Source: Mobula hypostoma
Lineage: Eukaryota
Direction of reading: 5' to 3'
Assembly (NCBI RefSeq): GCF_963921235.1
Contig: NC_086108.1
Coordinates: forward strand, 3,596,001 to 3,660,000
Length of the DNA: 64,000 nucleotides
Positions 10,954 to 56,874 of the stretch are shown piece by piece. The notes under the pieces are model-generated. The model did not search any database. It saw only the letters and a list, made by a program, of their open reading frames with translations, and was not told where the DNA came from. How positions within the stretch are numbered: position 1 is the stretch's first letter; the number at the start of each line of letters is the position of its first letter. A program made the position numbers and the translations under genes.

Positions 10954-11280
10954 TTACTGGAAGTTGGAGAACTCGATGCTCATACCAAGGGGCTGGAGAC
11001 TACCTAGACGGTATATGAGGTGTTGCTCCTCCAACCTGAGTTTAGCCTCATCATGGCAGTAGAGGAGGCGATGTATGGACATATCCGAATGGGAATGGGA
11101 AGCAGAGTTGAAGTGGGTGGCTACCGGGAGATCCTGTCTGTTGTGGTGGACGGAGCGGAGGTGCTCGACGAAGCCGTTCCCCAATCTGCGTCGGGTTTCA
11201 CCGATGTAGAGGAGGCCGCACGGGGAGCACCGAATGCAATAGATGACCCCAACAGTCTCACAAGTGAAGTGTTGTCTCAC
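10954..11280 (-). pseudogene. Penelope-type GIY-YIG endonuclease fragment
   Basis: FTC...GVIYCIRCSPCGLLYIGETRRRL..F.EH: GIY-YIG motif with the CxxC insertion typical of Penelope-like elements. The RT domain is missing. Confidence 0.9.
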
Positions 11281-12505
11281 CTGGAAGGACTGTTTGGCGC
11301 CCCGAATGGTGGCAAGAGAGGAAGTGTAGGGACAGGTGTAGCATTACGTTGAGCACTTCCGCTCCACCCGCCACAACAGACAGGATCTCCCGGTTGCCAC
11401 CCATTTCAACTCTGCTTCCCACTCCTATTCAGATATGTCCATACATGGCCTCCTCTACTGCCATGATGAGGCTAAACTCAGGTTGGAGGAGCAACACCTC
11501 GTATACCGTCTAGGTAGTCTCCAGCCCCTTGGTATGAACATCGAGTTCTCCAACTTCCAGTAATTCCCTCCCCCTCCCTTCCCCTATCCCTATGTCACTC
11601 TGCCCCCTCCCCCAGCTGCCTATCACCTCCCTCATGGTTCCGCCTCCTTCTACTACCCATTGTGTTTTCTCCTATTCCTTCTTCACCTTTCCTGCCTATC
11701 ACCTCCCTGCCTCCCTTCCCCCACCCCTTTATCTTTCCCCTTACTGGTTTTTCACCTGGAACCTACCAGCCTTCTCCTTCCCACCCTCTCCCCACCTTCT
11801 TTATAGGGCCTCTGCCCCTTCCCTCTACAGTCCTGATGAAGGGTTCCGGCCCAAAATGTTGACTGATCATTTCCACGGATGCTGCCCGACCTGCTGAGTT
11901 CCTCCAGCGGGTGGTGGGTGTTGCTTTGACCCCAGCATCTGCAGAGTATTTTGTGTTTCTATCTATACTGTGCCTTGTAGACTATTCCCAGAAACATTTA
12001 CCATCTCTGCTCTGCCATCATCCCCACCAGTATCCTCCTCCAATGCACCTGAGCAAGGTCCTTTCTCATGCCTCTGTAATTCCCTTTATTCCATTGTGAT
12101 ACTGATACACGTGATTTATGCCTCCCCCTCTCAAACTGCAGTAAGAAGTCAATCATATTATGATCACTGTCTCCTAAGGGTTCCTTTACGTTAAGCTCCC
12201 TAATAAGATTTGGGTTATTACACAACACCCAATCTGAGATGGCCTTTTCCCAAGTAGGCTCAACCACAAGCTGCTCTAAAAAGCCATCTCGTAGGCATTC
12301 AACAAATTCCCTCTCCTGCTATCCTACACCAACTGATTTTCCCAATCCCCTTGCATATTGAAGTCCCCCATTACAATTGTGTCATTAGCTTTTGCAATCT
12401 CAACCCCACATCGCGGCTACTATTTCGAGGCCTATATATGATTCACCTGATGGGTTTTTTTACCTTTGCAATTTCTTAACTCCACCTACAAAGGTTCAAC
12501 ATTCT

Positions 12506-14380: not shown

Positions 14381-15442
14381 CTTTGATATATATCCCTTGA
14401 TATTAAGCTCCCAACTATTGGCCTTCTTTTTGCCATGACTCAGTGATGCCTGCAACGTCATTCCGACCAATCTCTAATTGTGCCACAAGTTTGTCCACCT
14501 CATTCCAAATGCTACACGCATTTAAATACAGCACCTTCAGTCCTGCATTGTTTGCCCTTTTGAATTTTGTCTCTGTGGTACAATTTAACTCTTCGCTCTG
14601 TCTGCAATTGTACCCAATCATTGGCTTGTCCTTCCTTACATTCATGTTACACCCATCATCTACTTGTAAACCTGCTGGCTCATCCTCAGCTCTATCATCC
14701 TGATTCCCATCCCCCTGACATATTAGTTTAAACCACTCCCAACAGCTCCAGTAAATCTGCCCGCAAGGATATTGGTCCCCCTCATGTTCAAGTGTAACCC
14801 GTCCCTTTTGTACAAGTCACACCTGCCCCAGAAGAGGCCCCAGTGATCCAGAAATCTGAATCCCTCCCCTGCTCCAATTCTTCAGACACGCATTTATCTG
14901 CCATCTCAATCTATTCCTCCTCACTGTCGCATGGCACAGGCAGTAATCCAAGATTACTACCTTTGAGCTCCTGCTTCTCAGCTTCCTGGGGGGCAAACTA
15001 CCATCCGTGTTTGCTTCTTGCACCCACAGAATCGCCTGTCTGCCCCCCTGACTACAGAGTCTCCTATAGCTACTGCCATCCTCTTCCATTCCCTACCCTT
15101 CTGAGCCGCAGGGCCAGACTCAGTGCCAGAGGCACGGCTGCTGTTGCTTCCCCCAGGTAGGTCATCCTCCCCACCACCACCAGTACTCAAAATGGAGTAC
15201 ACATTGTGGTGGGGGATGGCCGCAGGGCTGCTCACTGTCGTTAATGTGCAGTGAACTCAGTGCAGTGCAAGGCAGCAGAGAAGCCATGACACACAGGCTC
15301 TGTCTACCCACAGATAGGCTGGGCGTAAGAATCAGAATCAGGTTTAATATCACCGGCATATGTCATGAAATGTATTGTCTGTGGTAACAGTACAATGCAA
15401 TACATGGTAATAGAAAAAATGTGAATGACAGTAAGTACAGAA

Positions 15443-15474
15443 AACACACAGACACAGACACACACACACACACG

Positions 15475-15522
<48 letters not shown>

Positions 15523-15571
15523 CACACACACACACACACACGCACACACACACGCACACATAGACACACAG

Positions 15572-15604
<33 letters not shown>

Positions 15605-16013
15605 CGTGCACACACACACACCCACACATAGACACGCAGACACACACACACACACACGCACACACGCGCGCACGCATAGAGACACACATACACACGCACG
15701 CACACACACACACACACACACACATAGACACACAGACACAGACACACAGACAGACACAGACACATACACACAGACAGACACACACACACACACACACACA
15801 TAGACATACAGACACACACAGACACAGACATACAGACACAGAGACACACACACATACACAGACACACACACACACACATGCGCGTGTACACACACAGACA
15901 CACACACAAACACGCTTGCACACATGCATGCAGACACAGAGACACAGACACAAACACACACACAGCACACACACAGATACAGACACACAGACACACACAC
16001 GTGCACACACACA
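15443..16013. repeat. Imperfect (CA)n microsatellite
   Basis: ~570 bp of CA/CAGA repeats, read directly. Confidence 0.97.
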
Positions 16014-16015
16014 TA

Positions 16016-17325
16016 CTTCTTCTTCTCCTTCGGTTGTCCATCGGAATCCGATGACGTCGTCCACTCCTTTAACAGTGAGATCTTTGATGACTATACAGTC
16101 CTATCCTGGACCCACAAGCTCTGTTACAGGTGGGACATGTATATGTGATCGTGGTGGCAACCATGGCTGCATTTCTCCCGGCTCTCTTCTGCTGTCTTCT
16201 GGTTGTTCTTTCCATCTCCAGAATACGAACCCCGTCCCTACACAGCTGTCACCAAGTGGTACGGTCAGCAGCAACATCCTGGGGTCCTCGAGTCTGATCC
16301 TGCACTTCCTTAAAGCATTCTTCATCTGATCCTTACAGCGCTTCTTCTGCCCTCCAGCTGAGTGTCGACCATGATGTAGCTGGCCGTATAACACTCTGCG
16401 GGGTAGCCGACATGGGGGCATCCTTATCACGTGCCCCAGCCACTGCAGCTGGCGCTGGGTGATCATGGCCTCAATACTCCTGCAGTTGGTCTTTACAAGT
16501 ATCTCAGTGTGAGGCACCCGCTCACCCCAGGTAATTCCCAGGATGTGCTGGAGGCAGTTTATGTGGAAGTGCTCCAAGAACTTGATGTGACGGCTGTAGG
16601 TTACCCGAGCTTCACAGCTATAAAGGAGGGTGCTGACACAGACCGCTTGGTATACGGCGACCTTTGTGGAGGGACGAAGGCTCCTGTTCTGAAAGACTCT
16701 ACGCCGAAGTCTCCCAAAGGCAGCTGATACCTGTTTAATGCGGCTCTGGATGTCGTTGTCAACGCCGCTATCCTCAGAGAGAATGCGCCCCAGATATTGG
16801 AAAGATGGCACTACTGACAGCTTTTCATCACCAACAGTGAAGGCAGGTAGAGTGGGTGGAACACTGGTACTCCATTGGCAAACCACTTCTGTCTTGGTGG
16901 TATTGACAGTCAACCCCATCCTGCTGTACGCTCTCACCACCACGGCAAGGACAGTCTGAAGATCCTCCAGAGTATGGGCCACAAGAGCACAGTCGTCTGC
17001 ATACTGCAGCTCCAGGACCCACTCTCTACAGAGTTTGGTGGTTGCGTGCAGCCTCCTGATGTCAAAGAGGTTGCCATCTGATCTGACGTCCACTGCCACA
17101 CCACTGCTGTCTTCAATCTCGTTGTGGAGAAGCTTGGTATCACACAAGAGGAAGATGTTAAAGAGCACTGGCGCTAGTACACACCCCTGCCTCACCCCTG
17201 TGCGTACAAGGTAGGGCTCAGACTCTTGTCCTCCTACGGTCACCCGAGCAGTCATCCCATCATGGAGGATGTTAACAAATTTATTGGGGCAACCAAACTT
17301 GAGGAGGACATCCCATAAGAGCTTT
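16016..17325 (-). mobile_element. 5'-truncated RTE-clade LINE (RT C-terminal half)
   Basis: ORF 16101-17255: GVRQGCVLAP, LQYADD, FQYLG, AAFGRL, QWLGHVIRM, with a (GAA)n tail at ~16016-16027. Confidence 0.92.
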
Positions 17326-49826: not shown

Positions 49827-50989
49827 TAATCCTGAGGACAACTGAGAACATCCTGACTGGCTGCATCACTGCCTGGTATGGGAACTGTACCTCCCTCAAT
49901 CACAGGACTCTGCAGAGAGTGGTGCGGACAGCCCAGCACATCTGTAGTTGTGAACTTCCCATGATTCAGGACGTTTACAAAGACATGTGTGAAGAAAGGG
50001 CCCGTAGGATCATTGGGGACCCGAGTCACCCCAGCCGCAAACTGTTCCAGCTGCTACCATCGGGGAAACGGTACCGCAGCATAAGAGCCAGGGCCAACAG
50101 GCTCCAGGACAGCTTCTTCCAGCAGGCCATCAGACTGATGAAATCACGCTGACACAATTTTATTTCTAAGCTATACTGACTGTTCTGTTGTATATCTTAC
50201 TGTACATACTATTTATTACAAATTACTATAAATTGCACATTTCACACTCAGATGGAGGCGTAAAGTAAAGATTTTTATTCAGAGCTTTCTTCATCATGTC
50301 AGTATCTTCCTCCCGGTTTTCACTACTGTCAGTCATGCAAGTCCCAGGTGGAGGTTCAGGAATACCGTCACACTCAAGCGTGGAAGGATTCCACATTACT
50401 GTTTCCTTAACAATTCCATCACAGCACCCAGGCCGTGCTCTCTTCTCACTGCTGCCATCAGGTAGAAGGTACAAGAGCCTCAGGACTCACACCGCCAGGC
50501 TCAAGGATAGTTACTACACCTCAACCATCAGGCTCTCGAATAAAAGGGCATAACTACACTCGCACCCCATCACTGAGGTTCTCCCACAACCAATGATCAC
50601 TTTAAGGACTCTTTATCTCATTATCTCATGTTCTCATTATTTATTGCTATTTATTTATATTTGCATCTGCACAGTTTGTTGTCTTCCGCACTCTGGTTGA
50701 TCTTTCATTGATCCTGTTATAGTTACTATTTCATAGATTTGCTGAGTATGCCCACAGGAAAATGAATGTCAGGGTTGTATATGGTGACGTACATGTACTC
50801 TGATAATAAAAATTGTTTTGAACTTTGACTTTTACCAGTCAAGGTCGTTACCCCTGAGCTGAACGCCCAAACCTGGAGGACCAGTGGACCACTCTTAGTC
50901 TGGCCTCTACCCTTTGACCTGTTTGGCATGGGTGACCCCACCAAGAACCAAAGCATAAAGTCCCGACTCTAGCCAGCATTCACTAGCGT

Positions 50990-51456
50990 GGTCTGTCCGC
51001 CAGAGAAAGCAGGATCTCCCAGTGGCCACACATTTTAATTCCACGTCCCATTCCCATTCTGATATGTCTGTCCACGGCCTCCTCTACTGTAAAAATGAAG
51101 CCACACTCAGGTTGGAGGAACAATATCTCATATTCCGTCTGGGTAGCCTCCAACCTGATGGCATGAACATCGACTTCTCTAACTTCCCTCCCCCATTTCT
51201 TTCTCCCTGGGCCTCCTGTCCCATGATCCTCTCATTTCCCTTTTGCCAATCACCTGTCCAGCTCTTGGCTCCATCCCTCCCCCTCCTGTCTTCTCCTATC
51301 ATTTTGGATCTCCCCTCCCCCTCCAACTTTCAAATCTCTTACTAACTCTTCCTTCAGTTAGTCCTGACAAAGGGTCCCGGCCCGAAACGTCATCTGCACC
51401 TCTTCCTAGAGATGCTGCCTGGCCTGCTGCGTTCACCAGCAACTTTGATGTGTGTT
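50990..51456 (+). mobile_element. Penelope-like 3' fragment, close relative of 43170-43822
   Basis: ATHFNSTSHSHSDMSVHGLLYC..EATLRLEEQ..LGSLQP, plus a mutated hammerhead at ~51360-51396. Confidence 0.82.
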
Positions 51457-52516
51457 ACTTAGAGGGCATGTGCTATCATGAGAGGCTGGATAAACTTGGG
51501 TTGTTTTCTCTGGCGTGTCAGAGGCTGAGGGGAGATCTGACAGAGGTTTACAAGATTATGAGAGGCATAGATCGAGTGGACAGAGAGTATCTGTTTCCCA
51601 GGGTTGACATGTCTAATACCAGAGGGTAGGCACTGAGGGTGAGAAGGGGTAGGTTCAAAAGGGATGTGAGGGGTAAGTTTTTTACTCAGAGAGTGGTACA
51701 TGCTGGTGGTGGGAGCAAATACATTCGAGGCTTTTAAGAGACATTTGGATGGGCACGTGGATGTGAGGAAGATGGAGGGATATGGACACGGTGTAGGTAG
51801 GAGGAATTAGTGTTTGGGTGTTTTTGATTTGCTTTTTAGCTGGTTTGGTACAACATTGTGGGCTGAATGGCCTCTTCCTGTGCTGTACTCTTCTTAGCAC
51901 GACCAGAGGTGGTTCTTTCACTCATATGCGGACTGTACCTTCTCTTTTTCTCGATATCACCCTGTGCATATGCTTTGTCCTTGGATTGTTTACGTTTATG
52001 TCTAATTGTTTTTACTTTGCGTTGCAGGTGTCTCATTTGGGATCATGGGGATTGTTAAACTCTCTTTGCGTTTATCACCTTCAATTAATTTAGGATAATT
52101 TAATTAGCATGCTCTTGCCGGCAAGTGCTTTCGTGGCCTTCAGCAACCGTTTGAAGCAAATGGTCCAGGGTTCAAATCCGGCCGGTTCCTTGCATGCTTG
52201 GACTCCTCGAAGAAGGAGTCTGAGAGTCTGAGTGGGAGTGCCGAGAAAGAGATTTTTGAAATTTTCGTTATTTTTTTTTCTCCAACGGCTTTCTGAGAGG
52301 CGGGACTGCGCAGGCGTGTGACGTCGGGCAGTGCAGCGCGGCAGATTTAAAAAGAACAAAGCCTCATAGAGCGGGCAGCGTAGTTTGCGGGCGGCGGAGT
52401 GAGCCGGGAGCAGAGTGAAGACTTAAGGGCTTCGGCTCAACGGGCTTAGGCGGAAGCGGGCGAGGCGAGGAAGGTTTGACATTCATTTTCTGTTGCTATT
52501 TGAGGAGAGGGGCATT

Positions 52517-53452
52517 ATGACTGTGAGGGCAGTTTGCTGTTCTCGGTGTCGGATGTGGGAGGCCCTGGAGTCTCCAAGCCTCCCGGACGTCTACATCTGC
52601 GCCAAGTGCATCGAGATGCAGCTCCTAAGGGACCGCGTTACGGAACTGGAGCTGCAGCTCGATGACCTTCGTCTGGTCAGGGAGAGCGAGGAGGTGATAG
52701 AGAGGAGTGGAAGGCAGGTGGTCACGCCGGGGCCACGGGAGGCAGACAAGTGGGTCACGGTTAGGAGAGGGAAGGGGAAAAGGCAGGTGATGAGGAGTAC
52801 CCCGGCGGCTGTGCCCCTTAACAACAGGTACTCCTGTTTGAGTACTGTTGGGGGGGACAGCTTACCCGGGGGAAGCGACAGTGGCCCTGCCTCCGGCACA
52901 GAGTCTGGCCCTGTAGCTCAGAAGGGTAGGGCAAGGAAGAGGAGGGCAGTTGTGATAGGGGACTCGATAGTAAGGGGGTCAGATAGGCGATTCTGTGGAC
53001 GCAGTCCAGAGACTCGGATGGTAGTTTGCCTCCCTGGTGCCAGGGTCCGGGATATTTCTGATCGTGTCCAAGATATCCTGGAGTGGGAGGGTGAAGAGCC
53101 AGAGGTCCTGGTACATATAGGTACCAATGACATAGGTAGGAAAAGGGATGAGGTCCTGAAAGAAGAATATAGGGAGCTAGGAAGGGAGTTGAGAAAAAGG
53201 ACCGCAAAGGTAGTAATCTCGGGATTACTGCCTGTGCCACGCGACAGTGAGAGTAGGAATGCGATGAGGTGGAGGATAAATGCGTGGCTGAGGGATTGGA
53301 GCAGGGGGCAGGGATTCAAGTTTTTGGATCATTGGGACCTCTTTTGGCGTAGGTGTGACCTGTACAAAAAGGACGGGTTACACTTAAATCCTAGGGGGAC
53401 CAATATCCTGGCAGGGAGATTAGCGGGGGCTACTGAGGTGACTTTAAACTAG
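52517..53452 (+). CDS. CR1 ORF1p: CxxC..CxxC Zn-finger-like domain, coiled coil, SGNH/GDSL esterase domain
   Basis: ATG at 52517. CSRCRMW...CAKC, LRDRVTELELQLDDL, VIGDSIVR, HIGTND, DGLH. Confidence 0.93.
   Translation: MTVRAVCCSRCRMWEALESPSLPDVYICAKCIEMQLLRDRVTELELQLDDLRLVRESEEVIERSGRQVVTPGPREADKWVTVRRGKGKRQVMRSTPAAVPLNNRYSCLSTVGGDSLPGGSDSGPASGTESGPVAQKGRARKRRAVVIGDSIVRGSDRRFCGRSPETRMVVCLPGARVRDISDRVQDILEWEGEEPEVLVHIGTNDIGRKRDEVLKEEYRELGRELRKRTAKVVISGLLPVPRDSESRNAMRWRINAWLRDWSRGQGFKFLDHWDLFWRRCDLYKKDGLHLNPRGTNILAGRLAGATEVTLN
53443..53452 (+). promoter_or_regulatory. Candidate -1 ribosomal frameshift site (U_UUA_AAC followed by UAG)
   Basis: X_XXY_YYZ heptamer in ORF1 phase directly before the ORF1 stop. 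The -1 frame is ORF2. Confidence 0.7.
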
Positions 53453-53457
53453 AATGG

Positions 53458-56457
53458 TTGGGGGGTGGGAATCAAATTAAAGCGGCTAGGTGTGAGGAGG
53501 TTAGTTCACAACAGAGGGATGGGAACCAGTGCAGAGAGACAGAGGGGTGTAAAGTGAGCGTAGAAGCAAAAAGTACAAAGGGGAAAAGTAAAAGTGGCAG
53601 GCCGACAAATCCAGGGCAAGCATTAAAAAGGGCTAAGAGAGTTGTAAAAGAGCGCCTGAAGGCTTTATGTGTCAATGCAAGGAGCATTCGTAATAAGGTG
53701 GATGAATTGAAAGTGCAGATTGTTATTAATGATTATGATATAGTTGGGATCACAGAGACATGGCTCCAGGGTGACCAGGGATGGGAGCTCAACGTTCAGG
53801 GATATTCAATATTCAGGAGGGATAGACATGAAGGAAGGGGAGGTGGGGTGGCGTTGCTGGTTAAAAAAGAGATTAACGCAATAGAAAGGAAGGACATAAG
53901 CCGGGAAGATGTGGAATCGATATGGGTAGAGCTGCGTAACACTAAGGGGCAGAAGACGCTGCTGGGAGTTGTGTACAGGCCACCTAACAGTAGTAGTGAG
54001 GTCGGAGATGGTATTAAACAGGAAATTAGAAATGTGTGCAATAAAGGAACAGCAGTTATAATGGGTGACTTCAATCTACATGTAGACTGGGTGAACCAAA
54101 TTGGTAAAGGTGCTGAGGAAGAGGATTTCTTGGAATGTATGCGGGATGGTTTTTTGAACCAACATGTCGAGGAACCGACTAGAGAGCAGGCTATTCTGGA
54201 CTGGGTTTTGAGCAATGAGGAAGGGTTAATTAGCGATCTTGTCGTGAGAGGCCCCTTGGGTAAGAGTGACCATAATATGGTGGAATTCTTCATTAACATG
54301 GAGAGTGACGTAGTTAATTCAGAAACAAAGGTTCTGAACTTAAAGAGGGGTAACTTTGAAGGTATGAGACATGAATTAGCTAAGATAGACTGGCAAATGA
54401 CACTTCAAGGATTGACGGTGGATATGCAATGGCAGGCATTTAAAGGTTGCATGGATGAACTACAACAATTGTTCATCCCAATTTGGCAAAAGAATAAATC
54501 AAGGAAGGTAGTGCACCCGTGGCTGACAAGAGAAATTAGGGATAGTATCAATTCCAAAGAAGTAGCATACAAATTAGCCAGAGAAAGTGGCTCACCTGAG
54601 GACTGGGAGAAATTCAGAGTTCAGCAGAGGAGGACAAAGGGCTTAATTAGGAAGGGGAAAAAAGATTATGAGAGAAAACTGGCAGAGAACATAAAAACGG
54701 ACTGTAAAAGCTTTTATAGATATGTAAAAAGGAAAAGACTGATAAAGACAAATGTAGGTCCCCTGCAAACAGAAACAGGTGAATTGATTATGGGGAGCAA
54801 GGACATGGCAGACCAATTGAATAATTACTTTGGTTCTGTCTTCACTAAGGAGGACATAAATAATCTTCCAGAAATAGTAAGGGACAGAGGGTCCAGTGAG
54901 ATGGAGGAACTGAGCGAAATACATGTTAGTAGGGAAGTGGTGTTAGGTAAATTGAAGGGATTGAAGGCAGATAAATCCCCAGGGCCAGATGGTCTGCATC
55001 CCAGAGTGCTTAAGGAAGTGGCCCAAGAAATAGTGGATGCATTAGTGATAATTTTTCAAAACTCGTTAGATTCTGGACTAGTTCCTGAGGATTGGAGGGT
55101 GGCTAATGTAACCCCACTTTTTAAAAAAGGAGGGAGAGAGAAACCGGGGAATTATAGGCCGGTTAGCCTAACGTCGGTGGTGGGGAAACTGCTGGAGTCA
55201 GTTATCAAGGATGTGATAACAGCACATTTGGAAAGCGGTGAAATGATCGGACAAAGTCAGCATGGATTTGTGAAAGGAAAATCATGTCTGACGAATCTCA
55301 TAGAATTTTTTGAGGATGTAACTAGTAGAGTGGATAGGGGAGAATCAGTGGATGTGGTATATTTGGATTTTCAAAAGGCTTTTGACAAGGTCCCACACAG
55401 GAGATTAGTGTGCAAACTTAAAGCACACGGTATTGGGGGTAAGGTATTGGTGTGGGTGGAGAATTGGTTAGCAGACAGGAAGCAAAGAGTGGGAATAAAC
55501 GGGACCTTTTCAGAATGGCAGGCGGTGACTAGTGGGGTACCGCAAGGCTCAGTGCTGGGACCCCAGTTGTTTACAATATATATTAATGACTTGGATGAGG
55601 GAATTAAATGCAGCATCTCCAAGTTTGCGGATGACACGAAGCTGGGTGGCAGTGTTAGCAGTGAGGAGGATGCTAAGAGGATGCAGGGTGACTTGGATAG
55701 GTTGGGTGAGTGGGCAAACTCATGGCAGATGCAATTTAATGTGGATAAATGTGAAGTTATCCACTTTGGTGGCAAAAATAGGAAAACAGATTATTATCTG
55801 AATGGTGGCCGATTAGGAAAAGGGGAGGTGCAACGAGACCTGGGTGTCATTATACACCAGTCATTGAAAGTGGGCATGCAGGTACAGCAGGCGGTGAAAA
55901 AGGCGAACGGTATGCTGGCATTTATAGCGAGAGGATTCGAGTACAGGAGCAGGGAGGTACTACTGCAGTTGTACAAGGCCTTGGTGAGACCACACCTGGA
56001 GTATTGTGTGCAGTTTTGGTCCCCTAATCTGAGGAAAGACATCCTTGCCATAGAGGGAGTACAAAGAAGGTTCACCAGATTGATTCCTGGGATGGCAGGT
56101 CTTTCATATGAAGAAAGACTGGATGAACTGGGCTTGTACTCATTGGAATTTAGAAGATTGAGGGGGGATCTGATTGAAACGTATAAGATCCTAAAGGGAT
56201 TGGACAGGCTAGATGCGGGAAGATTGTTCCCGATGTTGGGGAGGTCTAGAACGAGGGGTCACAGTTTGAGGATAGAGGGGAAGCCTTTTAGGACCGAGAT
56301 TAGGAAAAACTTCTTCACACAGAGAGTGGTGAATCTGTGGAATTCTCTGCCACAGCAAACTGTTGAGGCCAGTTCATTAGCTATGTTTAAAAGGAAGTTA
56401 GATATGGCCCTTGTGGCTACAGGGGTCACGGGGTATGGAGGGAAGGCTGGGTTCTGA
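53458..56457 (+). CDS. CR1 ORF2p: APE endonuclease + reverse transcriptase (no AUG start; see findings)
   Basis: VNARSI, GITETW, YRPP, MGDFN, LDWVL, SDH (APE); YRPVSLTS, LDFQKAFD, GVPQGSVLGP, KFADD (RT). 999 codons with no stop. Confidence 0.96.
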   Translation: MGGGNQIKAARCEEVSSQQRDGNQCRETEGCKVSVEAKSTKGKSKSGRPTNPGQALKRAKRVVKERLKALCVNARSIRNKVDELKVQIVINDYDIVGITETWLQGDQGWELNVQGYSIFRRDRHEGRGGGVALLVKKEINAIERKDISREDVESIWVELRNTKGQKTLLGVVYRPPNSSSEVGDGIKQEIRNVCNKGTAVIMGDFNLHVDWVNQIGKGAEEEDFLECMRDGFLNQHVEEPTREQAILDWVLSNEEGLISDLVVRGPLGKSDHNMVEFFINMESDVVNSETKVLNLKRGNFEGMRHELAKIDWQMTLQGLTVDMQWQAFKGCMDELQQLFIPIWQKNKSRKVVHPWLTREIRDSINSKEVAYKLARESGSPEDWEKFRVQQRRTKGLIRKGKKDYERKLAENIKTDCKSFYRYVKRKRLIKTNVGPLQTETGELIMGSKDMADQLNNYFGSVFTKEDINNLPEIVRDRGSSEMEELSEIHVSREVVLGKLKGLKADKSPGPDGLHPRVLKEVAQEIVDALVIIFQNSLDSGLVPEDWRVANVTPLFKKGGREKPGNYRPVSLTSVVGKLLESVIKDVITAHLESGEMIGQSQHGFVKGKSCLTNLIEFFEDVTSRVDRGESVDVVYLDFQKAFDKVPHRRLVCKLKAHGIGGKVLVWVENWLADRKQRVGINGTFSEWQAVTSGVPQGSVLGPQLFTIYINDLDEGIKCSISKFADDTKLGGSVSSEEDAKRMQGDLDRLGEWANSWQMQFNVDKCEVIHFGGKNRKTDYYLNGGRLGKGEVQRDLGVIIHQSLKVGMQVQQAVKKANGMLAFIARGFEYRSREVLLQLYKALVRPHLEYCVQFWSPNLRKDILAIEGVQRRFTRLIPGMAGLSYEERLDELGLYSLEFRRLRGDLIETYKILKGLDRLDAGRLFPMLGRSRTRGHSLRIEGKPFRTEIRKNFFTQRVVNLWNSLPQQTVEASSLAMFKRKLDMALVATGVTGYGGKAGF

Positions 56458-56874
56458 GTTGGATGATCAGCCATGATCATAATAAATGGCGGTGCAGGCT
56501 CGAAGGGCCGAATGGCCTACTCCTGCACCTATTTTCTATGTTTCTATGTTTCTATAATGTTAATCTCTGGAATTCCTACGTGCTCCAGTATGTATGCCAA
56601 GCCTCTTTGTTGGGTTGTTGTGCTTCTTTGTTGAGTGAAACTCAAACCAATTTCTTCTGTGTGTTGTTAAGCGATTTCAGTTCTTCAAGGTTATTGTTAA
56701 TTCATATAATAAATCTTTAGTTTCGCTTGAATCGCTGAAGACTCTGTCATTCCTACACTTGAGTTCACTAGTGATCCTCACAGTTGTGTGTTCTATCAGT
56801 CTGTGGAACTCTTTGCCACAGGCGGCTGTGGTAGCCAAGTCCTTCCGTATATCTAAGGCAGAGGTTGATAAATA

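Follow-up and report, generated by a model that had tools for sequence, protein, structure and literature searches.

The window, a 64,000-nucleotide stretch of the Mobula hypostoma genome (RefSeq assembly GCF_963921235.1, contig NC_086108.1, positions 3,596,001 to 3,660,000 of the forward strand), carries on its plus strand a full-length copy of a CR1-like long interspersed nuclear element (LINE) of about 4.35 kb (52207-56558; all coordinates are those of the window, on the plus strand unless noted). The two open reading frames of this element, ORF1 and ORF2, overlap by 16 nt in different frames, and a canonical slippery heptamer lies within the overlap. We find the same arrangement in all 14 diverged lineages that were compared, which is beyond chance. 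From the anatomy of the junction and its deep conservation, we consider it likely that the ORF2 protein (ORF2p) is made by programmed -1 ribosomal frameshifting at U_UUA_AAC, yielding a fusion of the ORF1 protein (ORF1p) with ORF2p.

Structure of the element

The boundaries of the element were defined by the 5′ and 3′ ends that its copies share. Eight of 29 other copies start exactly at 52207, the remaining 21 being 5′-truncated at scattered breakpoints, and in 39 other copies the match stops at 56558-56569, right past three TTCTATGT units. A 5′ untranslated region (52207-52516) extends from the common 5′ end to the ATG of ORF1 (52517-53452), which encodes 311 amino acids followed by TAG and sits within a frame open from 52427 to 53452 in the stop-to-stop ORF listing. 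ORF1p has a CxxC-rich N-terminus and a GDSL/SGNH esterase domain recognized by Pfam (Lipase_GDSL_2, E 3.5e-16; Lipase_GDSL, E 1.8e-7). We found 73 homologues of ORF1p, the best named one being an uncharacterized Mobula hypostoma protein with 98% identity; other named homologues come from further rays, sharks and a chimaera. The ORF2 frame, -1 relative to ORF1, is open from 53437 to 56457 in the same listing. Read after a -1 shift, ORF2 would occupy 53449-56457, from a first codon CTA at 53449 to a TGA at 56455-56457, with 1004 open codons from the heptamer on. Its APE endonuclease domain (Exo_endo_phos, E 3.5e-12) precedes the reverse transcriptase (RVT_1, E 3.7e-34). The endonuclease spans 53713-54282 (PF03372 at residues 93-279 of the frame starting at 53437, PF14529 at residues 178-282) and the reverse transcriptase 55132-55785 (residues 566-783).

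Long terminal repeats (LTRs) are absent, and a tail of short tandem repeats, (TTCTATGT)n, replaces poly(A). As read from the sequence, the tail at 56534-56556 holds about three of these octamers, and copies end there. The unit resembles the CR1 octamer TTCTGTGA named in PMC2612034 (this paper and those cited below are drawn on in excerpt). By its domain layout, its tail octamer and the chicken-CR1-like ORF2 start of related metagenome loci (see below), the element is classed as a CR1-like (CR1/L2 group) non-LTR retrotransposon with an esterase-type ORF1. A Pfam search for the esterase domain across the 3.48-Gb genome gave 29,326 first-look candidates. The family is abundant and very young, and the copy in the window is apparently intact. 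Over 401 nt around the junction, sequence identity is 100% at all 40 scored genomic places, the window included (40 scored of 1,417 candidates), and the junction arrangement has therefore been propagated recently. About 600 nt upstream of the element, positions 51400-51630 hold the 3′ piece of another CR1-type ORF2 (...LGLFSLACQRLRGDLTEVYKIMRGIDRV...).

The ORF1/ORF2 junction

ORF1 ends in GTG ACT TTA AAC TAG (53438-53452). The slippery heptamer T_TTA_AAC (53443-53449) is thus in the X_XXY_YYZ phase of ORF1, and the TAG stop (53450-53452) abuts it. No other canonical heptamer is in phase among the 311 phase positions of ORF1, and TTTAAAC occurs once in the whole element. Upstream, a TGA at 53434-53436 closes the -1 frame, so that entry into the ORF2 frame is confined to 53437-53452, the region of overlap. 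The first in-frame methionine of ORF2 is at nt 54061 (VIMGDFN), 207 codons past the start of the heptamer and inside the endonuclease domain; the N-terminal APE motif (NARS) is at codon 78 counted from the heptamer. An ATG at 53454 lies in the third frame and is followed by a stop after 8 codons. A role for this short ORF was considered and rejected, as the sister subfamily has ATT at that position. Six nt past the heptamer begins a G-rich tract, GGTTGGGGGGTGGG (53456-53469), with a core of G6-T-G3 at 53460-53469, which is a candidate 3′ stimulator. The initial annotation of this DNA had described the end of ORF1, the phase of the heptamer, the -1 frame of ORF2 with its upstream TGA and roughly 16-nt overlap, the late in-frame ATG, the out-of-frame ATG with its 8 codons and the G-rich tract, and both the sequence and the ORF listing bear this description out.

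A second GGGATGGGAACC motif is present at 53516-53527, about 60 nt beyond the first G tract. Its homologue in the L127- and L131-type lineages is their primary G tract, and the sequence of these lineages matches that of the window from about 53520 on. The lineage of the window therefore appears to have acquired some 57-60 nt that lie between the stop and the second GGGATGGGAACC motif.

Sampling of junction lineages

LINE copies decay neutrally after insertion, and therefore only differences between lineages inform on selection. The window's own cluster comprises 29 sequences that are 85-100% identical; of these, 27 retain TTTAAAC and 28 retain TAG. A second subfamily, 79% identical to the window in ORF1p and only about 35% identical at the start of ORF2, retains GTTTAAACTAGAAT.GTTGGGGGGTGGGAA, with 20 nt upstream and the downstream sequence diverged. 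TTTAAAC is intact in 21 of its 22 copies, and an in-frame ATG precedes the APE domain in 2 of the 22. Two of these copies, L052 and L055, have a TGA in the -1 frame 9-10 codons past the heptamer. At this codon the 22 copies read TGA in 11 cases, CGA in 9, CAA in 1 and TGT in 1, and we rejected the TGA as a refutation of frameshifting, treating it as a CpG-type decay polymorphism of dead copies.

Distant ORF1p homologues were searched against the genome, and the 40 junction snippets of 200 nt that were extracted yielded seven further lineages. Metagenome contigs, scanned with a profile, added eight loci with a junction (six intact and two decayed), in which ORF1 is 29-39% identical to that of the window and the start of ORF2 resembles that of chicken CR1. 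ORF1-profile scans of further genome and viral contig collections returned only bacterial-type GDSL genes, with no LINE context. The 79 junctions were clustered at 80% identity over 200 nt, resulting in 18 clusters. Four representatives were left out: L143, in which the junction is deleted, L082, which ends 5 nt past the stop, and the decayed L081 and L099. The 14 lineage representatives compared, 9 from the Mobula hypostoma genome and 5 from metagenome contigs, were anchored at the stop; lineage counts below refer to this set.

The window also holds a fragment of another CR1-like lineage with the same type of junction on its minus strand (14415-14816, junction near 14732). This fifteenth example reads GGT TTA AAC TAA, then 7 nt, then GGGGGATGGGAAT; its -1 frame (WFKLICQGDGN...) leads into the start of the APE domain, and the ORF is interrupted by another insertion.

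Conservation of the heptamer, the stop and the frame

The heptamer reads NNT_TTA_AAC (TTTAAAC) in 13 lineages and G_TTA_AAC (GTTAAAC) in one, the locus L083. A stop codon abuts the heptamer in every lineage (TAG in 8, TAA in 6), and ORF2 is in the -1 frame in all 14. Conservation amounts to 1.95 bits per position in the heptamer, 1.67 in the stop and 1.27 at +10 to +22, with 0.40-0.83 in the flanks. Ten of the 14 lineages have a stop in the -1 frame only 10-22 nt upstream of that of ORF1, and there the ORF2 frame is therefore enterable only via the heptamer region. The linker between the heptamer and the APE motif measures 78, 50, 39 and 39 codons in the four junctions with enough sequence. 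These counts bear directly on whether the heptamer is a chance occurrence in a dead copy. By our own arithmetic, the odds of a heptamer within the 16-nt overlap are about 1% (32 of 16,384 heptamers per phase position). The recurrence of the heptamer in 14 lineages and the identity of at least 39 other copies across the junction refute this explanation, to which we give next to no credence.

We then considered codon usage. The terminal Leu codon is TTA in all 14 lineages, though TTA makes up 17% of the Leu codons of the element, and the terminal Asn codon is AAC in all 14, AAC being 37% of the Asn codons. A conserved Leu 14 codons upstream is encoded by CTG, CTA, CTT or TTG depending on the lineage. 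The residue preceding Leu-Asn is T, S, A, G, D or C, and the third base of its codon is T in 13 of 14 lineages. In the G tract, 26 of 29 Gly codons are GGG, versus 34% elsewhere in the element. The use of a single codon at varying or synonymous sites of the heptamer, together with the GGG bias, indicates that both the heptamer and the G tract are kept at the RNA level.

ORF1p homologues and their C-termini

The heptamer specifies a Leu-Asn (LN) tail on ORF1p, and the tails of its homologues enlarge the set of relatives compared. A true C-terminus, with the last esterase block near the protein end, is present in 49 of the 73 homologues, and 46 of these 49 end in LN. Overall, LN tails are found in 49 of the 73, including SH3-bearing ORF1 proteins, and in 48 of those 49 the preceding residue is compatible with an NNT codon. 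Such a widespread tail makes a protein constraint conceivable, in which case Leu-Asn would be retained for the sake of ORF1p, ORF2 would be expressed by internal entry, leaky scanning or non-AUG initiation, and the heptamer would be a by-product. Such a constraint could be satisfied with any of six Leu codons and two Asn codons, but the 14 representatives use TTA and AAC exclusively; the preceding third base stays T in 13 of them whichever of A, G, D, C, T or S is encoded; and the constant -1 frame and abutting stop are left unexplained. We regard this explanation as very improbable.

A wider profile search of 1.84 billion representatives at 50% identity was used to sample more distant tails. 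Among the best 150 matches, 97 have an esterase C-terminus, and these end in LN (50), GN (9, mostly QGN), KN (2), EN (2), SN (2) or other residues (32). QGN, KN or EN tails are found on distant esterase ORF1 proteins such as P0117, P0123, P0133, P0136, P0137, P0140, P0179, P0187 and P0207, among others. Judged from the protein alone, such tails would fit the heptamers G_GGA_AAC, A_AAA_AAC and G_GAA_AAC. A search of the genome with the QGN-tailed P0133 returned only LN lineages, at about 44% identity, and no G_GGA_AAC class.

Some of the ORF1p homologues have unexpected annotations. P0021 comes from a 4,159-bp contig and is labelled an SGNH/GDSL hydrolase of Pseudomonas aeruginosa. It shares 59% identity with the LINE ORF1p and has GLN as its C-terminus; the probable source is vertebrate DNA included in a bacterial assembly. 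CR1 ORF1 sequence is also found within P0024, P0059 and P0060, gene models that go by the names '40S ribosomal protein S24 isoform X2' (Pristis pectinata) and 'transmembrane protein 204 isoform' (Mobula birostris) and look like annotation artefacts from LINE insertions.

The G-rich tract

All 14 lineages have a G-rich tract 7-10 nt downstream of the heptamer-stop. A run of at least four Gs starts 8-11 nt past the heptamer in each of them, at +11 in 11 lineages. The residues encoded by the tract in the -1 frame differ (LGGGN, RGVGS, GGEGM, QGDGN, KGEGD and AGARD), and the run occurs in all three codon phases. The downstream region is purine-rich, with a longest pyrimidine run of 2-7 nt. G4Hunter maxima in 20-nt windows are 1.2-2.45 in 15 of 16 junctions; the other, at 0.8, is L143 with its deleted junction. 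Only two G tracts are strictly conserved. We infer from the sequence that the tract is a probable, if putative, stimulator of the frameshift. As neither a stem-loop nor a helix partner is predicted (see below), this stimulator would be an unusual one, possibly acting as a G-quadruplex or as a protein-binding site.

Probable frameshifting and its alternatives

Since every relative examined keeps the slippery signal, -1 slippage is the most likely route to ORF2p. A ribosome translating ORF1 would reach U_UUA_AAC with a Leu tRNA in the P site and an Asn tRNA in the A site. A fraction of ribosomes would then slip one base back onto UUU_AAA and go on to read CUA GAA UGG..., producing a fusion protein of about 1,313 residues in which ...TLN is followed by LEW.... 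By default, the remaining ribosomes would terminate at the abutting UAG and release ORF1p. This would fix a high ratio of ORF1p to ORF2p and tie the enzyme to the RNA that encodes it, as happens for retroviral Gag and Gag-Pol. In this scheme the slippage itself and its efficiency, the part played by the G tract and what becomes of the fusion protein are inferred. The initial annotation had put forward such a Gag-Pol-like fusion for the copy in the window, and the site, phase, stop, frame and G tract kept in 14 of 14 lineages support it.

Several observations weigh against frameshifting. The 14 lineages are mutually related and are not fully independent samples. Linker residues vary freely across lineages, with no signal of protein-level selection there. 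Minimum free energy (MFE) folds of 16 junctions show no significant secondary structure in the 100 nt after the stop (z -1.4 to +1.1), and the folding of the downstream sequence that had been suggested at the outset accordingly yields no stable structure. A helix partner for the G tract better than in shuffled controls was not found in 13 of 14 lineages, in a search that used no dedicated pseudoknot program. On the MFE folds and the partner search, a classical stem-loop or pseudoknot stimulator 5-9 nt downstream was rejected. ViennaRNA with G-quadruplexes enabled predicts a two-tier intramolecular G-quadruplex on the tract in only 5 of 16 junctions, that of the window included. Finally, 6 of 14 lineages have an in-frame AUG somewhere from the heptamer to the APE domain, and the sequence examined in the other 8 has none. 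In one lineage (6 copies) the junction reads AAC UAA UGU, which forms UAAUG with its AUG in the ORF2 frame as in the LINE SART1, and reinitiation is therefore possible there. An in-frame AUG also occurs 4 codons past the heptamer in two metagenome loci, L086 and L081. Of the features that were to be aligned across CR1 junctions according to the initial annotation, the heptamer and its phase proved to be conserved in 14 of 14 lineages and an AUG is lacking in 8 of them; as a whole, this comparison speaks for frameshifting.

The AUGs bring in the main rival to frameshifting, termination-coupled reinitiation. Here ribosomes would terminate at the ORF1 stop and restart near it in the -1 frame, whether at an AUG or not, with the G tract tethering the 40S subunit, in the manner of SART1 UAAUG or of the calicivirus termination upstream ribosomal binding site (TURBS). 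SART1 coupling and the unconventional termination/reinitiation of L1 address the same problem, the expression of ORF2 from a bicistronic LINE RNA. In SART1 the ORF2 frame is likewise -1 and lies beside the ORF1 stop, and coupling needs a downstream RNA element (PMC3894237, PMC3708506). The UAAUG lineage, the AUGs of L086 and L081 and a stop that is always directly at the junction would all fit such a mechanism. The -1 codon overlapping the stop is, however, variable (GAA, AAU, GAU, AUU, ACA, GCU or GGU). In the window this codon is GAA, the nearby ATG at 53454 is in the wrong frame, and no in-frame AUG follows for 207 codons; UAAUG is confined to one lineage. With an in-frame AUG in only 6 of 14 lineages, the start codon is not the conserved feature, and in contrast to SART1 and L1 a start codon at the junction is missing from the window's and most other lineages, whereas the slippery heptamer is universal among the 14. 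Reinitiation also gives no reason for the invariance of TTA, AAC and the T before them at synonymous positions. We therefore judge reinitiation to be improbable as the general route to ORF2p, although the two mechanisms may operate side by side in those few lineages whose junction includes an AUG.

A further possibility is that splicing, editing or polymerase slippage joins the two frames in the RNA, giving some transcripts with one continuous ORF. We found no support for this, though a G6 run is present just past the stop. Because that run lies past the ORF1 stop, changes in its length cannot join the frames, and TTTAAAC itself has no long homopolymer. Among public runs, none on record as RNA was found for 53250-53750. 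Contigs of 4 public runs (of uncertain kind) show no indel at 10% or more within 53367-53750 and no intron-like joint across the junction, which is weak evidence. In these contigs, aligned at a likeness of at least 85%, the 40 best-supported of 49 variants all fall at 53319-53427 or 53483-53717 and none at 53428-53482, in agreement with the conservation of the junction, though this too is weak evidence. Altogether we think RNA-level joining highly improbable. In one contig from run X5, of depth 140, position 53473 is followed after a single other letter by 53695, so that 221 nt of the linker from the G tract to the APE domain are missing. The ends of this gap (AA..AT) are not intron-like, and the contig is probably a family deletion variant in another organism.

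Comparison with known systems

Coronaviruses and arteriviruses express their polymerase by -1 programmed ribosomal frameshifting (PRF) with a pseudoknot 5-7 nt downstream of the shift site. The heptamers at their ORF1a/1b junctions (U_UUA_AAC in infectious bronchitis virus, IBV, and severe acute respiratory syndrome coronavirus, SARS-CoV; G_UUA_AAC in equine arteritis virus) are the same as those of the LINE junctions, G_UUA_AAC being that of L083, and in both groups the polymerase is encoded by the downstream -1 ORF. On mammalian ribosomes U_UUA_AAC counts among the most shift-prone heptamers, and equine arteritis virus makes use of G_UUA (PMC5009743). Unlike these viral sites, the LINE junction has no predicted structure, carries a G-rich tract instead and has the 0-frame stop abutting the heptamer.

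A stop next to a shift site has precedents. In barley yellow dwarf and red clover necrotic mosaic viruses, a UAG is directly adjacent to the shift site. In pea enation mosaic virus, a stop 3 nt past the shift site is needed for efficient frameshifting (PMC5009743); this stop is 3 nt further on than that of the LINE, which directly abuts the heptamer.

Among retroelements, 28 of 51 surveyed animal LTR elements have pol in the -1 frame (PMC5009743). As in retroviral and LTR-element Gag-Pol, the proposed LINE products would be an abundant RNA-binding first protein and a rare enzyme fusion from one mRNA. The LINE differs in being a non-LTR element whose ORF1p is of the esterase type and not Gag, and because it has no protease the fusion would not be cleaved in the known way. 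The Dictyostelium LINEs TRE5-A and TRE3-A, which are APE-type like the present element and belong to a different clade and host, are stated to require a -1 frameshift for ORF2 (PMC5911963).

The G tract has partial parallels. PRRSV (the virus of porcine reproductive and respiratory syndrome) nsp2 -2/-1 PRF depends on a linear C-rich motif that lies 11 nt downstream and acts through the proteins bound to it, nsp1beta and PCBP, no RNA structure being involved (PMC7939443). The LINE likewise has a conserved unstructured motif about 10-11 nt past the shift site, G-rich where that of PRRSV is C-rich; a PRRSV-like activation in trans by a protein would be pure inference. G-quadruplexes stimulate -1 PRF in synthetic constructs, and their natural use was 'anticipated' in 2016 (PMC5009743); a 2026 paper describes frameshifting promoted by RNA G-quadruplexes (rG4) at codon repeats in human genes (PMC12809536). 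Compared with these cases, the LINE has only its two strictly conserved G tracts and the two-tier prediction in a minority of junctions given above.

Relation to earlier work and implications

CR1-like elements are among the most abundant LINEs of vertebrates, and how ORF2 of a LINE is translated from a bicistronic RNA is a long-standing open question. The excerpts of two reviews of LINE translation call the mechanism unclear and discuss only reinitiation, internal ribosome entry site (IRES) or 2A routes, with no mention of frameshifting (term counts of zero; PMC3894237, PMC3708506). In the corresponding excerpts of a frameshift review (Atkins et al. 2016, PMC5009743), the only non-LTR elements mentioned are HeT-A, TART and L1. 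Full-text literature searches, whose coverage did not extend to the founding CR1 papers, returned no paper that connects TTTAAAC or ribosomal frameshifting with CR1 or esterase LINEs. Priority may be affected by the first descriptions of CR1 (Haas 1997, Kajikawa 1997, Kapitonov and Jurka 2003). What is new here is the deep conservation of the junction, and a canonical heptamer in a new host class of elements together with an abutting stop and an unusual putative stimulator.

If frameshifting is the route, the whole CR1-like group would make a Gag-Pol-like ORF1p-ORF2p fusion and would differ from L1 in stoichiometry, cis-preference and ribonucleoprotein (RNP) assembly. In addition, the junction would give eukaryotes a natural frameshift signal in which a G tract that forms no predictable helix is the conserved 3′ element. 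More speculatively, all CR1/L2 LINEs with an esterase-type ORF1, in hosts ranging from marine invertebrates to amniotes, might deliver their reverse transcriptase as a fusion via an N_NNA_AAC-stop site. This site would be UUA_AAC in most cases and, given the QGN, KN and EN tails, GGA_AAC, AAA_AAC or GAA_AAC in other branches. Its stimulator would be no folded RNA but a conserved G-rich tract some 10 nt downstream, serving either as a naturally occurring G-quadruplex or as a site to which a protein binds in trans; that protein might be ORF1p or a host factor that binds G tracts. We hold this broader proposal only tentatively and think it rather doubtful in its full extent. Were the tract bound by a protein or folded into a G-quadruplex, the efficiency of frameshifting, and hence of transposition, would be adjustable.

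Other repeats in the window

The window contains two copies of a conserved ORF fragment from a repeat family other than the CR1-like LINE, at 50959-51345 on the plus strand and 10954-11343 on the minus strand. The fragment reads ...LPVATHFNS.SHSHSDMS.HGLLYC...LRLEEQ.LI.RLGSLQP.GMNI.FSNF. At 15304-16329, a TG/CA-rich microsatellite of about 1 kb gives rise to long spurious Cys-Val and Thr-His ORFs on both strands.

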